Source: a bacterium (GTDB lineage: Bacteria > Patescibacteriota > Microgenomatia > UBA8517). From it: DNA of 64,000 nucleotides. The position numbers were made by a program, and so were the translations under genes. The stretch lies in contig CP129472.1 of assembly GCA_030583725.1 (NCBI GenBank), positions 529,902 to 593,901 on the forward strand, read 5' to 3'. This document shows, piece by piece, positions 23,956 to 26,519 of this stretch (position 1 is its first letter; each line of letters starts with the position of its first letter). The notes below the pieces were generated by a model that searched no databases, was not told where the DNA came from, and saw nothing but the letters and a program-made list of their open reading frames with translations.

Positions 23956-25821
23956 TTACTCCTGTCTATTCCAAGCCTTGGTGTTTGGCATTGTACTAGT
24001 AGGTATGTCTTGTGGTTTGGTGTTTATTAATTCATGTTCTGCTTCTGAGGCAACAATTCTAATTGGTGCATGATGTGGTCCTGCAAAAAATATTCCCTCA
24101 CCTACGTTTGCAGCCATTAGAAGTTGTTTTTCTCCTTGAGAAAGATAGAATATTTCACCTAGTTTGTCTATGGCTGTTGGAGATTGCTTTAAAAGTAAAC
24201 GTAATGCAGAGTTTGTAACAATTGCCTTACCAATGTCTTGACCTAAAAAGTCTTCAACATCCTGGGTAATTGTAGTTAGACCTAGATAGTATTTTCTTGC
24301 CCGTTTAACAACAGACCAAAGGAACTGTGCAGTATCTGGATATTTCATCATTTGCCAAGCTTCTTCAACAATTAGGATTCTTCTTTTGATATCTCTTTTA
24401 ACTCTGGTCCAAATATAGTCAAGAATCATAAACATGATAATTGGACGTATTGCGTCTTGAATATCTTTAACTGAAAAAACAGTAAATGGATTATTTAGAT
24501 CAATGTTAGTTTGTTTGTCAAAAATTCCTTGAAATGAACCTCTAATAAACTTTTCAATACGTGAAGCAAGGTCAAGTGCTTCTGGAACCTCCATCCCAAT
24601 TAATGTTTTATAAAGATCCTCCATTAAAGGTGGTTCTTTTGATTGTGTGTCCGGGTCATTAGTAATCCCCTTTGCTTTATAAGTCATAATTAGGGCTCTG
24701 TCTAACATGGCCTCTTGAGTTGGAGATATTTGACCCATTATTACTTTCATCAAAGAATGAAGTGATAATATTTTTAGTCCTAACTGGTTCTCACCTTCTT
24801 CTCTAATTTGTGTTAGGTCAAATGGGTTGATTTTTGCGGGGCTATTATATGAAAAAGCGATATACTGACCGCCAACTGCGTCACAAAGGGCTTTATACTC
24901 TGCTTCAGGGTCTAGAATGATAACTTCTGAGCCGATCATCAAGGACCTAACTGCTTCTGTTTTAACAAAATAAGATTTACCTGCACCTGACGTGGCAAAG
25001 ACTGTCATGTTTCCATTTTCCAAACTAAATCTGTCAAAGATAATAAAAGATTCATTTTGAGAGTTAATACCATAGAGAACACCTTTATCTGATGAAAGTT
25101 CAGCAGATGTAAATGGAAAAGTTGTAGCTACTGATGTTGTATCCATATTTCTTGTAATTGCTAATCTGTCTTGCCCATATGGTGCAGTTGAAAGAAATCC
25201 TTCTTTCTGGTCAAGTGTTGCGTTTTTAGAAACAATTAAAAGTGAACCTAGTGTTGATTGGACCTGTCTTGTGACATTGTTTAATTCGTCAAGGTTGTTG
25301 GCTGGTATTGTGATATAGAAAGAAAATTCGTAGTACCTCTCAATTCCTTTGACAAGTTGCTCCTGTAGTGCCCTCGCATCTTCCAGTTTTGCAGTTGTTG
25401 ATGGGTCAACTATTTTCCCTCTTTGCATATCTGTTGAAAGCTCCGCCTCCATTTCTGCAATCTTGCGTCGAAGATCGTCTAATACAGACTTACCCGCAAC
25501 AGGGTAAATATAAAAACTCATGTCTAAGGAGGAATTAAAATTAACAACTGGTTCAAGCCAACCAGGGGCAACAAACCTAGGATAGCCTGCTATGAAAATG
25601 GTTCTATAGTAGACATTGTTTATTTTTACGTGGTTGAAATCAACTTCAACGTGGTCGGATGCAATTGCATCATGTAACAACATCTCTTTGCTTGCGATAG
25701 TGAGATTAGGGTTTGTCACCCTAGGTTTATAACCCGTCAGTGGTTTGTTGTCAGTTTTTGGTGGCACGGCAACAGTAATTGGCTGCTTAATGTTTGTTGG
25801 TGGTGTTAAATCGTTTTTCAT
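23956..25821 (-). CDS. virB4: type IV secretion ATPase VirB4/TrbE/CagE family, C-terminal two-thirds
   Basis: 621 aa. 'YRTIFIAGYPRFVAPGWLEPVV' VirB4 mid-region. Walker A 'FATSGAGKSYFVK'. Walker B-like 'RILIVEEAWQMM'. Confidence 0.7.
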   Translation of the reverse strand: MKNDLTPPTNIKQPITVAVPPKTDNKPLTGYKPRVTNPNLTIASKEMLLHDAIASDHVEVDFNHVKINNVYYRTIFIAGYPRFVAPGWLEPVVNFNSSLDMSFYIYPVAGKSVLDDLRRKIAEMEAELSTDMQRGKIVDPSTTAKLEDARALQEQLVKGIERYYEFSFYITIPANNLDELNNVTRQVQSTLGSLLIVSKNATLDQKEGFLSTAPYGQDRLAITRNMDTTSVATTFPFTSAELSSDKGVLYGINSQNESFIIFDRFSLENGNMTVFATSGAGKSYFVKTEAVRSLMIGSEVIILDPEAEYKALCDAVGGQYIAFSYNSPAKINPFDLTQIREEGENQLGLKILSLHSLMKVIMGQISPTQEAMLDRALIMTYKAKGITNDPDTQSKEPPLMEDLYKTLIGMEVPEALDLASRIEKFIRGSFQGIFDKQTNIDLNNPFTVFSVKDIQDAIRPIIMFMILDYIWTRVKRDIKRRILIVEEAWQMMKYPDTAQFLWSVVKRARKYYLGLTTITQDVEDFLGQDIGKAIVTNSALRLLLKQSPTAIDKLGEIFYLSQGEKQLLMAANVGEGIFFAGPHHAPIRIVASEAEHELINTKPQDIPTSTMPNTKAWNRQE

Positions 25822-26519
25822 ATGTCTTTCTTTACTGCTGGTGGTTCAGGGTTGTTTATTGAAAAATAAAGATCAATTAGCTCTTCAGTTTTTAGTTGTT
25901 TTAATTTTAAACCTAGTCTTCCCGCCTGTCTTATCAAGTGGTCTCTTTTGGGAAACAAAGTAACCTTTGCCTTTTTTAATACATAATCCTTTGAAAAAGG
26001 TAATGGACCCTTTTTCAAAACTGACTGCGCTGATTTAGTAACTCCAAGTTCGAGTTGATTAAAAGGTAAAACAATGAAAAACCTTTTACCCAAAACTGTT
26101 TTTTTCTTAATAGATTCTGTTATAAATTTTCTATAATCGTCAGTAATTGCTTTTAGTCTTGGGTTTGTGATTTTTGCAGATTGTTCATCAAAGTAATTAA
26201 TATATCCTGAGATGTTTTTTCTTTGTGTCCTAACCATAATTTGAATTGAAAAAGAGAGTGAATTGATTAGTGCTGCGTATGCTGCAACCACAGCCCCCTG
26301 CTCTTTTTCTGAGAGTAACCCAAAATTTAAAGATGATGTTTCAAGTACAATTGCTGCTCCCCCATCCTTATACAAAACCACATCATCTAAAATATCAGCA
26401 ATCGGCAAAAAGTCTTGAGTTGTTGATGTTAGGGGTATGTCTGGAGTACCAAAGTAGGGAATTTTTGAAATAAATCCTTTAACGTTGTTTGTTACTGGTG
26501 TCTGTGTTGTATTATTCAT
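25818..26519 (-). CDS. probable VirB4 N-terminal domain encoded as a separate ORF
   Basis: 233 aa. Ends in ATGA, overlapping the start of the ATPase ORF. 233 + 621 aa is about full VirB4 length. 'IADILDDVVLYKDGGAAIVLETSSLNFGLLSEKEQGAVVAAYAALINSL' resembles the VirB4 N-terminus. Confidence 0.4.
   Translation of the reverse strand: MNNTTQTPVTNNVKGFISKIPYFGTPDIPLTSTTQDFLPIADILDDVVLYKDGGAAIVLETSSLNFGLLSEKEQGAVVAAYAALINSLSFSIQIMVRTQRKNISGYINYFDEQSAKITNPRLKAITDDYRKFITESIKKKTVLGKRFFIVLPFNQLELGVTKSAQSVLKKGPLPFSKDYVLKKAKVTLFPKRDHLIRQAGRLGLKLKQLKTEELIDLYFSINNPEPPAVKKDI

Follow-up and report, generated by a model that had tools for sequence, protein, structure and literature searches.

A VirB4 ATPase encoded by two adjacent genes at a chromosomal type IV secretion locus of a Woesebacteria-like member of the Patescibacteria

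Gene content of the locus

The window analyzed here (the whole 64,000-nt stretch of DNA, to whose numbering all positions refer) comes from an ultra-small, Woesebacteria-like member of the Patescibacteria. On its minus strand, about 3 kb from dnaA and dnaN, the genes for a PrgI/VirB3-like membrane protein, a small TrsD-like protein (ORF1), and a VirB4 ATPase (ORF2) lie contiguously at 23956–27577, so that VirB4, TrsD, and PrgI/VirB3 are clustered. Together with the gene that follows, for a large membrane/peptidase protein, they form an operon of a chromosomal type IV secretion system (T4SS), in the order listed in Table 1. The two ORFs reported in a preliminary description of this DNA are confirmed by the ORF list and direct reading of the sequence, which place them on the minus strand as two frames that share an ATGA.

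Table 1. Coordinates of the features at the locus
Feature	Position	Strand	Basis
PrgI/VirB3-like membrane protein, 345 aa	26540–27577	−	Pfam PrgI match and operon position
ORF1, 233 aa, TrsD-like / Pfam PF26593 "TraC-like"	25818–26519	−	ORF list, profile matches
ATGA stop/start overlap of ORF1 and ORF2, 4 nt	25818–25821	−	Direct sequence reading
ORF2, 621 aa, N-terminally truncated VirB4, CD1110 family	23956–25821	−	NCBIfam, Pfam, and PDB matches
Walker A (P-loop) TSGAGKSY, ORF2 residues 277–284	24970–24993	−	Direct sequence reading
Walker B-like ILIVEE, ORF2 residues 482–487	24361–24378	−	Direct sequence reading
915-aa protein, Gly-zipper/TM-rich center, C-terminal HELAH metallopeptidase-like region	21206–23953	−	ORF list
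198-aa ORF, last gene before the convergent dnaN	20629–21225	−	ORF list
dnaN, about 3 kb from the PrgI/TrsD-like/VirB4 genes	19525–20628
dnaA	17873–19318

The operon opens with the 345-aa gene, whose end lies 20 nt ahead of ORF1. Its product matches the Pfam family PrgI at residues 5–84 (E 1.5e-5; 25.9 bits, slightly below the cut-off of 27) and also has a linker rich in Pro, Thr, and Ser and, at its C-terminus, a CarboxypepD_reg-like domain (Pfam CarboxypepD_reg, E 1e-7). At the other end, the 915-aa gene starts 2 nt past the ORF2 stop. Its Pfam matches to Peptidase_M64 and Gly-zipper are weak and below cut-off, and the protein is probably a membrane or cell-wall component of the operon. The 915-aa gene shares its last 20 nt with the 198-aa ORF, for which no Pfam or NCBIfam match was obtained. 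Neither a VirB6-like channel protein nor VirB2-like pilins were identified by Pfam or NCBIfam in the locus; the TM-rich 915-aa protein and the unannotated ORFs at 29347–36301 are candidates only. Scans for promoters (23 promoter-like sites, with 23.5 expected) and terminators (eight terminator-like sites, with 5.1 ± 2.2 expected) were uninformative, and a terminator-like hairpin within ORF1 (26020–25989) was treated as a chance occurrence.

At the junction, the ORF1 frame reads ...GAC ATA TGA and the ORF2 frame ATG AAA AAC..., the assembled sequence around it (25800–25840) containing ...GACATATGAAAAAC... Relative to ORF1, ORF2 occupies the −1 frame. The ATGA overlap would be a junction of the translational-coupling type. 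No obvious Shine-Dalgarno sequence precedes the start of either ORF, so that it is the overlap itself that points to coupling.

Complementary coverage of VirB4 by ORF1 and ORF2

The product of ORF2 consists of a 40-aa leader rich in P, T, K, and N, the distal half of the VirB4 N-terminal domain (residues ~41–265), and the ATPase C-terminal domain (~266–600). Against the NCBIfam model NF045971 (conju_CD1110), it scored 370.9 bits (cut-off 325; E 1.3e-110) over profile positions 180–734 of 752, and it aligned with positions 207–726 of 792 in TIGR00929 and 287–893 of 894 in VirB4_plasma. In no case did a VirB4 profile alignment start earlier than ORF2 residue ~41–64. That this ORF begins in the middle of the VirB4 alignment, as had been noted earlier, is borne out by these starting points; the segment then quoted, YRTIFIAGYPRF, corresponds to residues 72–83. 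[quoted passage not shown] Thus the family threshold is exceeded and a RecA-like domain with Walker A and B motifs is present, as in VirB4/TraC ATPases, but the complete N-terminal domain (~400 aa) is not on the same chain, the missing segment being supplied by ORF1.

In ORF1, a variable and disordered stretch (residues 1–30) precedes a conserved core (~31–229), and in the homologue alignment the C-terminus, ...NNPEPPAVKKDI, is kept to the final residue before the stop. The NCBIfam profile VirB4_plasma matched this protein at positions 103–278 of 894 (E 1.8e-6), and CD1110 matched it at positions 3–107 (E 0.06). By hhalign, residues 32–220 aligned with residues 9–173 of the fused, 754-aa VirB4 of Carboxydocella (probability 97.5%, E 7e-12), and tblastn matches likewise landed on the N-termini of fused VirB4/TraC proteins. 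A match to PF26593 ("TraC-like") is on record, precomputed, for the protein identical to ORF1 and for 120 of its 120 best homologues. In the Pfam set without PF26593, nothing relevant was found for ORF1 (best match GIIM, E 0.15), and searches against the sequences of PDB chains, with the single sequence or with a 20-sequence profile, returned no VirB4 match.

The predicted fold of ORF1 may also be that of the VirB4 N-terminal domain. In Foldseek searches of the PDB with the AlphaFold model of ORF1, which is of moderate quality (pLDDT 68.7, with only one of five models above 46), the top nine matches were chains of the R388 TrwK/VirB4 (probability 0.97–1.00, best E 1.9e-3). The TM-scores with TrwK were 0.34–0.44 at ~11–12% identity, and no PDB match reached E ≤ 0.001. 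The earlier suggestion that the 233-aa ORF resembles the missing N-terminal part of VirB4 agrees with these profile, hhalign, and fold matches. As judged from its sequence, ORF1 is a stand-alone homologue of the N-proximal ~200 residues of the VirB4 N-terminal domain. We found 2553 homologues, of which the best 120 are all 206–349 aa long and the close ones carry the labels Woesebacteria, Microgenomates, or Saccharimonadales. At 50% identity the family forms 2445 clusters, and 149 of the 150 best representatives are stand-alone proteins.

The relationship of ORF1 to TrsD is a distant one. Against the TrsD/TraD family NF041427, whose profile also matches the N-termini of fused VirB4s, ORF1 scored 24.5 bits (E 2.1e-5), over residues 32–113 only. 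Because the curated cut-off is 200 bits, ORF1 is not a member of that family, and its profile matches make it a distant TrsD relative outside NF041427 by NCBI's threshold. Consistent with this, hhalign with S. aureus TrsD gave a probability of 59% over 81 columns (residues 32–112). The gene context is that of TrsD: compared with trsC-trsD-trsE of pUSA03, ORF1 is a protein of the ~200–230-aa class that follows a VirB3-like gene and precedes an N-truncated VirB4-like ATPase.

Placed on the same references, the two ORFs cover the VirB4 profiles complementarily, with neither overlap nor gap, the result that the preliminary description had proposed to look for. On VirB4_plasma the ORF2 match takes up at 287 after that of ORF1 has ended at 278, and on the Carboxydocella VirB4, ORF2 follows collinearly at residues 193–744. 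On a full-length monoderm VirB4, ORF1 corresponds to the first ~175–200 residues, and ORF2 begins at profile position ~180–207. The pair had been described as separate N-domain and ATPase ORFs. The separation is real, but ORF2 retains the distal half of the N-terminal domain and its ATPase begins only at ~267. By these alignments, VirB4 is divided within its N-terminal domain and not at the boundary between that domain and the ATPase.

Origin of the two-gene arrangement

We surveyed the loci of 80 species among the Woesebacteria/Microgenomates relatives. ORF1 and ORF2 are strictly adjacent in all 80 (80/80). They are two genes in 78, including L018 and L076, whose translations were read, and are fused in frame in the remaining two, L038 and L073. 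The split loci vary at the junction: 27 have ATGA, three a −1 overlap, eight other overlaps, 39 gaps of 0–80 nt, and one a non-ATG start; TAATG is also among the forms found. Relative to ORF1, the frame of ORF2 is 0 in 10 loci, +1 in 27, and +2 in 41, and all three stop codons are found at the ends of ORF1. The fused protein of L038 (860 aa) gives one continuous alignment, with TIGR00929 (VirB4_CagE) at 7–724 of 792 and with VirB4_plasma at 103–890; that of L073 has 914 aa. Fusions in the same order also occur in Firmicutes and Actinobacteria.

Three origins had been proposed for the split, of which the natural two-polypeptide VirB4 is very likely the right one; the same split in the related species, taken with the homology of ORF1 to the VirB4 N-terminus, speaks for it. 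A sequencing or assembly frameshift, through a single-base indel near 25820, might instead have artificially cut one VirB4 of ~850 aa. The single fused ORFs of L038 and L073 do indicate that the one-chain form is viable. However, the 78 split representatives come from independent projects and are divided at the same protein position with differing nucleotide junctions, the C-terminus of ORF1 is conserved right up to the stop codon, and the closest cluster representatives are stand-alone with a single exception. Moreover, Logan assembly DRR859381, which is independent of this genome assembly, contains both proteins (233 and 621 aa) in identical form, their genes again overlapping by ATGA. The sole homopolymer of the junction (AAAAA) sits past the ORF1 stop and is thus unable to fuse the frames. 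We consider the chance of such an error to be practically nil. It might even be the L038 and L073 fusions that are assembly errors, which would leave the main conclusion unaffected either way.

A programmed −1 ribosomal frameshift at the ATGA, yielding a full-length VirB4 besides or in place of the two chains, would suit the −1 frame of ORF2 in the window and the A-rich AAAGAAAGACAT before the ORF1 stop. On the other hand, the ORF1 frame contains no slippery heptamer of the form X XXY YYZ, and no slippery site is conserved across the orthologues. All three relative frames occur among them, with a stop between the ORFs in the 10 same-frame loci and gaps of up to 72 nt in others, and with such variable frames and gaps no conserved recoding signal is possible. 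In addition, every ORF2 but the one with a non-ATG start begins at an ATG of its own, and close relatives agree in the first residues of the protein. Frameshifting is accordingly given a very slight probability. The occurrence of two genes in 78 of 80 species, with junctions that differ, rules out both sequencing error and programmed frameshifting as the source of the split.

Proposed role and comparison with known systems

In the explanation that we favor, the ATGA overlap would couple the translation of ORF1 and ORF2, keeping the amounts of the two chains similar, and ORF1 would dock non-covalently on ORF2, rebuilding a complete VirB4 N-terminal domain. Through ORF1, the ATPase ring may also be tethered to the PrgI/VirB3-like membrane protein whose gene lies directly upstream. 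This tethering is proposed because in R388 VirB3 wraps around the VirB4 N-terminal domain (residues 15–400), which also provides the interface of the VirB4 dimer (Macé et al. 2022, PMC9259494). Docking on ORF2 and the link to the PrgI-like protein are suggested by homology, and our high confidence in a natural, conserved two-gene VirB4 is a single judgment that covers the whole explanation, putative coupling and docking included.

It is unlikely that ORF1 is instead an independent accessory protein, that is, a TrsD paralogue with a role of its own, for example in chaperoning assembly, adapting substrates, or regulation, that shares only its ancestry with the VirB4 N-terminus and does not rebuild this domain on ORF2. 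Other Patescibacteria homologues often have low-complexity tails of 100–500 aa in which the motif YTTPLV recurs, a hint of additional interactions, and about a quarter of the Patescibacteria TrsD homologues do not adjoin virB4, according to figures given in PMC12102498. Against this, ORF1 supplies exactly the segment missing in ORF2, natural fusions in the same order exist in the clade, in Firmicutes, and in Actinobacteria, and no locus of the survey departs from ORF1-ORF2 adjacency. The same paper also states that the TrsD gene is essential in S. epibionticum along with other T4SS genes; the essential T4SS locus of Ca. Southlakia epibionticum is SEML1_0006–0019 (Wang et al. 2023, PMC10633639).

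Within the two-gene VirB4 reading, a more speculative and rather doubtful extension is that the detached N-subdomain, which in many Patescibacteria has long disordered tails with a conserved YTTPLV motif, is a separately dosed adaptor subunit that alters the building and anchoring of VirB4 rings in monoderm and CPR T4SSs. If so, it may set the stoichiometry of inner and outer VirB4 rings or recruit the PrgI/VirB3-like protein or substrates, and gene fission would be a functional innovation tied to what the T4SS does for an epibiotic cell, an essential task other than conjugation. The question matters for TrsD, the most widespread component of a T4SS that is essential for epibiotic growth in the only Patescibacteria member amenable to genetics. 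By their alignments, the TrsD-like protein and the adjacent VirB4 are complementary halves of one canonical protein, cut inside the domain that in R388 serves VirB3 binding and dimerization. What TrsD does thus becomes the subject of a specific hypothesis that can be tested. For annotation, such gene pairs should not be marked as frameshifted pseudogenes, and the small gene would be better named a VirB4 N-terminal (TrsD/TraC-like) subunit.

Among known systems, pUSA03 of S. aureus (pGO1/pSK41-type) has the same gene order: VirB3-like TrsC, in the position of the 345-aa PrgI-like protein, then TrsD (227 aa), TrsE (670 aa), a membrane protein, and a hydrolase. TrsE is truncated at CD1110 position 183, compared with 180 for ORF2. 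A 20-nt gap separates trsD and trsE, whereas ORF1 and ORF2 overlap, and the pUSA03 system serves plasmid conjugation and includes a relaxase and a coupling protein, whereas the system of the window is chromosomal. A Pontibacillus megaplasmid has the same split (274 aa and a 621-aa CD1110-family VirB4, with an 11-nt overlap), preceded by a small protein in the position of the PrgI-like gene. Large hydrolases occupy the place of the 915-aa gene in both, a DD-metalloendopeptidase in Pontibacillus and the membrane protein plus a CHAP protein in pUSA03.

The full-length monoderm VirB4s of Carboxydocella pCCELLA01 (754 aa), Brevibacillus pBbsI (TraC-family, 810 aa), and T. pseudethanolicus, whose ATPase domain (4AG5) is strongly similar to that of ORF2, are single chains, in contrast to the two collinear ones of the window. 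The R388 TrwK/VirB4 (PDB 7O41, 7O42, 7O43, 8RTB, and 8RTD), which headed the structural matches for the ORF1 model, is a diderm protein and also a single chain. In the crenarchaeal CedB/CedD (PMC11868833), a complete VirB4-like N-terminal domain is likewise spread over two polypeptides, but these two are paralogues, both of them full ATPases, that contribute different parts of the domain, whereas ORF1 is small and has no ATPase.

The closest counterparts are in the Patescibacteria themselves. In the account of Quiñonero-Coronel et al. (2025, PMC12102498), TrsD is the most abundant T4SS component of this group, 1,664 of 2,272 homologues adjoin virB4, and TrsD is a remote homologue of the N-terminal portion of VirB4. 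For this homology the paper cites Guglielmini 2014, in whose main text TrsD is absent by name. A full-text literature search found no paper that mentions PF26593 or calls VirB4 split in so many words, and the passages searched in PMC12102498 leave unstated that the accompanying VirB4 is without the TrsD-equivalent segment, a point made explicit here by the tiling, by the fusions within the clade, and by the survey of junctions. In all that those passages cover, there is no substantive difference from the window: in both, a TrsD-like gene lies directly before a VirB4 of the monoderm (MPF-FATA) type, with a PrgI/VirB3-like gene adjacent and the replication origin nearby. A natural split, according to the preliminary description, would make an interesting T4SS variant. 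It is not a new one: TrsD plus VirB4 was known before from plasmids of the pGO1 type, and that paper reports it from Patescibacteria at large. The system in the window is of a known kind; a two-gene VirB4 is ordinary for Patescibacteria and already published.

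A VirB4 ATPase divided between two genes

Both genes of the preliminary description, a 233-aa TrsD-like or "TraC-like" protein (ORF1) and the VirB4 downstream of it (ORF2), were found in the ORF list exactly where it had placed them. On the minus strand, ORF1 ends in ...AAA GAC ATA TGA and ORF2 opens with ATG AAA AAC... in another frame. Stop and start therefore overlap by 4 nt, as proposed (ATGA, 25818–25821). The G+C content of the window is 35%, and its closest relatives are labeled Woesebacteria, Microgenomates or Patescibacteria.

Judged by its profile matches, ORF2 is a clear VirB4. 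It scored 370.9 bits (cut-off 325) against the NCBIfam model "VirB4-like conjugal transfer ATPase, CD1110 family", and also matched VirB4_plasma, TraC-F-type, the canonical TIGR00929 VirB4_CagE, and the Pfam families P-loop_TraG, AAA_10 and DUF87. Residues 267–596 match the crystallized C-terminal ATPase domain of Thermoanaerobacter VirB4 (PDB 4AG5, E 2.9e-46), with a Walker A motif (TSGAGKSY) at residues 277–284 and a Walker B-like motif (ILIVEE) at 482–487. With all full-length VirB4 profiles, the alignment begins only at residue ~41–64, at profile position 180 of 752 (CD1110), 207 of 792 (TIGR00929) or 287 of 894 (VirB4_plasma); ORF2 therefore lacks the first ~180–200 residues of a VirB4. 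The motif YRTIFIAGYPRF occupies residues 72–83, and the distal half of the VirB4 N-terminal domain is retained, residues 64–214 weakly matching Pfam CagE_TrbE_VirB. ORF2 starts with a 40-aa P/T/K/N-rich leader (compare 25702–25821).

The missing N-terminal part was recognized in ORF1, as had been suspected. ORF1 matches positions 103–278 of VirB4_plasma (E 1.8e-6), positions 3–107 of CD1110 (E 0.06) and the TrsD/TraD family (E 2.1e-5), and in tblastn against plasmids it matched the N-termini of single-chain VirB4/TraC proteins from Carboxydocella pCCELLA01 (754 aa), Brevibacillus pBbsI (TraC-family, 810 aa) and Rubrobacter (1344 aa). By hhalign, using a profile alignment of 20 ORF1 homologues, ORF1 residues 32–220 fall on residues 9–173 of the Carboxydocella protein (probability 97.5%, E 7e-12). 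ORF2 residues 58–603 align with its residues 193–744; the two pieces lie next to each other, collinear and without overlap, and likewise tile VirB4_plasma collinearly. ORF1 was modeled with AlphaFold at moderate quality (mean pLDDT 68.7), and the top nine PDB matches of the model were R388 TrwK/VirB4 chains (probability 0.97–1.00, best E 1.9e-3, TM 0.34–0.44). This fits the sequence evidence, but would not carry much weight by itself. As the profile coverage is complementary and the N-terminal domain of TrwK spans residues 15–400 (PMC9259494), the cut lies inside this domain. Thus, the N-terminal part is indeed on a separate ORF, but the boundary is not, as first described, that between N-domain and ATPase.

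Features of the window and of related-species loci (L numbers)
Feature	Position	Strand	Length (aa)	Remark
T4SS operon	20629–~27577	minus
PrgI/VirB3-like protein, C-terminal CarboxypepD_reg-like domain	26540–27577	minus	345	First in operon, then ORF1, ORF2
ORF1	25818–26519	minus	233
ORF2	23956–25821	minus	621
Gly/TM-rich protein, HELAH metallopeptidase-like end	21206–23953	minus	915	Directly after ORF2 in operon order
198-aa ORF		minus	198	Last in operon order
dnaN	19525–20628	plus		Abuts T4SS operon
dnaA	17873–19318	plus		Beside T4SS operon
Three large ORFs	29347–36301		820, 552, 786	Near T4SS operon
Valyl-tRNA synthetase ORF	8440–10500	plus	686
L038 fusion	2628–5210		860	24-aa linker
L073 fusion	4959–7703		914	84-aa linker
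L014, intein-bearing VirB4	5725–9294
L016, intein-bearing VirB4	5663–9406

The junction in related genomes

The 90%-clustered database contains 2553 homologues of ORF1; the 120 best range from 206 to 349 aa, and every one of them carries Pfam PF26593. A profile search over 1.84 billion 50%-identity representatives (E <= 1e-3) matched 2445 clusters, and 149 of the best 150 representatives are without any ATPase part, the sole exception being a fused VirB4 of 787 aa (P0150). The junction was then surveyed in 80 loci, one each from 80 different species genomes; 78 are split and two (L038 and L073) are fused in frame. The split loci show the ATGA overlap (27), a -1 overlap (3), a different overlap (8), a gap of 0–15 nt (28) or 16–80 nt (11), or a non-ATG start (1). 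Relative to ORF1, ORF2 is in frame 0 in 10 loci, +1 in 27 and +2 in 41, and ORF1 stops at TAA in 41, TGA in 30 and TAG in 7, its C-terminal end (...NNPEPPAVKKDI) being conserved as far as the stop codon.

Three origins had been considered for the split. A sequencing frameshift is refuted, since an indel cannot recur at one protein position in varied nucleotide contexts, as the split does in dozens of independent assemblies; moreover, the pair recurs in identical form (233 + 621 aa, same overlap) in the independent Logan assembly DRR859381. For a programmed frameshift, a slippery site would have to be conserved and the frame relationship fixed; this option is likewise refuted because neither is the case, ORF2 occurring in all three relative frames. 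Of the three, the natural two-polypeptide VirB4 is the correct one, and confidence in the two-gene reading is high. The fused L038 orthologue aligns in one piece (TIGR00929 7–724 of 792, VirB4_plasma 103–890), confirming that ORF1 followed by ORF2 is a canonical VirB4. The two fusions are secondary re-fusions, or else those MAGs were misassembled there.

In seven of the 80 species (L014, L016, L027, L028, L047, L050 and L053), the VirB4 ATPase gene (1171–1248 aa) bears an intein of ~570 aa, with Pfam Intein_splicing and a LAGLIDADG_3 homing endonuclease, inserted at the Walker A region or immediately before it (near ORF2 residues 265–274); none is present in the VirB4 gene of the window. Many other Patescibacteria have a stand-alone TraC-like/TrsD-like protein with a Pro/Thr/Gln-rich C-terminal tail of 100–500 aa (cluster representatives P0122–P0269), opening with a recurring motif of the approximate form (S/N)YTTPLV(Q/R)A; ORF1 has no such tail. 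Many GTDB species genomes with the Woesebacteria-type locus (55–87% identity; L005, L007, L011, L016 and others) are publicly titled "uncultured Gammaproteobacteria bacterium", and are evidently mislabeled Patescibacteria MAGs.

The operon and its surroundings

The T4SS operon is convergent with dnaN. Because dnaA and dnaN adjoin it, the secretion locus lies at the replication origin. Many Patescibacteria are reported to have such an arrangement, their T4SS loci often being near the origin (PMC12102498). The PrgI/VirB3-like protein is unusually long, a ~170-aa Pro/Thr/Ser-rich spacer preceding its C-terminal beta-sandwich domain, which suggests that this normally small membrane subunit has been extended outside the cell or across the cell wall. 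The 915-aa protein has an Ala/Gly-rich multi-TM center with a weak Gly-zipper match, and its C-terminal region, with the HELAH zinc-metallopeptidase-like motif, matches Peptidase_M64 weakly, below the cut-off; VirB6-like and cell-wall-hydrolase functions may be combined in this protein. The three large ORFs, without Pfam or NCBIfam matches at E <= 0.001, may be additional components of the envelope or the T4SS that are specific to the lineage. Elsewhere, the valyl-tRNA synthetase matches only positions ~2–700 of ~860-position profiles, apparently being without the usual C-terminal extension.

Proposed role and comparison with known systems

In the likeliest role for ORF1, the overlap would couple its translation to that of ORF2, and ORF1 would dock non-covalently on the half of the N-terminal domain kept by ORF2 and offer a putative binding surface for the PrgI/VirB3-like protein encoded immediately upstream, by which the ATPase ring would be tethered to the membrane channel. 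The chief alternative is that TrsD-like proteins acquired a role of their own, as adaptors or regulators; a hint of this is given by the long low-complexity tails that they have in other lineages.

The split is real, but its novelty is low. According to Quiñonero-Coronel et al. (2025; PMC12102498), TrsD outnumbers every other T4SS component in Patescibacteria (2,272 homologues, 1,664 of them VirB4-associated), and an essential homologue adjoins virB4 in Ca. S. epibionticum ML1; this T4SS locus is also essential for epibiotic growth (Wang et al. 2023, PMC10633639). With this literature and a Pfam family (PF26593, "TraC-like") already existing, the arrangement is the published norm for the phylum, rather than the interesting T4SS variant first supposed. 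The searched portions of PMC12102498 hold no statement that the accompanying VirB4 lacks exactly the TrsD-like segment, and no paper came up when phrases such as "split VirB4" were searched. What the tiling, the junction survey and the two in-clade fusions add is detail; the kind of system is not new.

The split recurs outside the phylum. A Pontibacillus megaplasmid encodes a 274-aa protein and a 621-aa CD1110-family VirB4 with an 11-nt overlap, flanked by a small protein upstream and a large metalloendopeptidase downstream. In Staphylococcus aureus pUSA03 (pGO1 type), 20 nt separate trsD (227 aa) from the downstream gene of the VirB4-like TrsE (670 aa), which starts at CD1110 position 183, the same place as ORF2, in the order VirB3-like TrsC, TrsD, TrsE, membrane protein and CHAP hydrolase. 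Staphylococcal TrsD is only distantly related to ORF1 (24.5 bits, cut-off 200; hhalign probability 59%), and the TrsD model also matches the N-termini of fused VirB4s. An analogous case is that of archaeal CedB/CedD, in which a VirB4-like N-terminal domain is divided over two proteins (PMC11868833).
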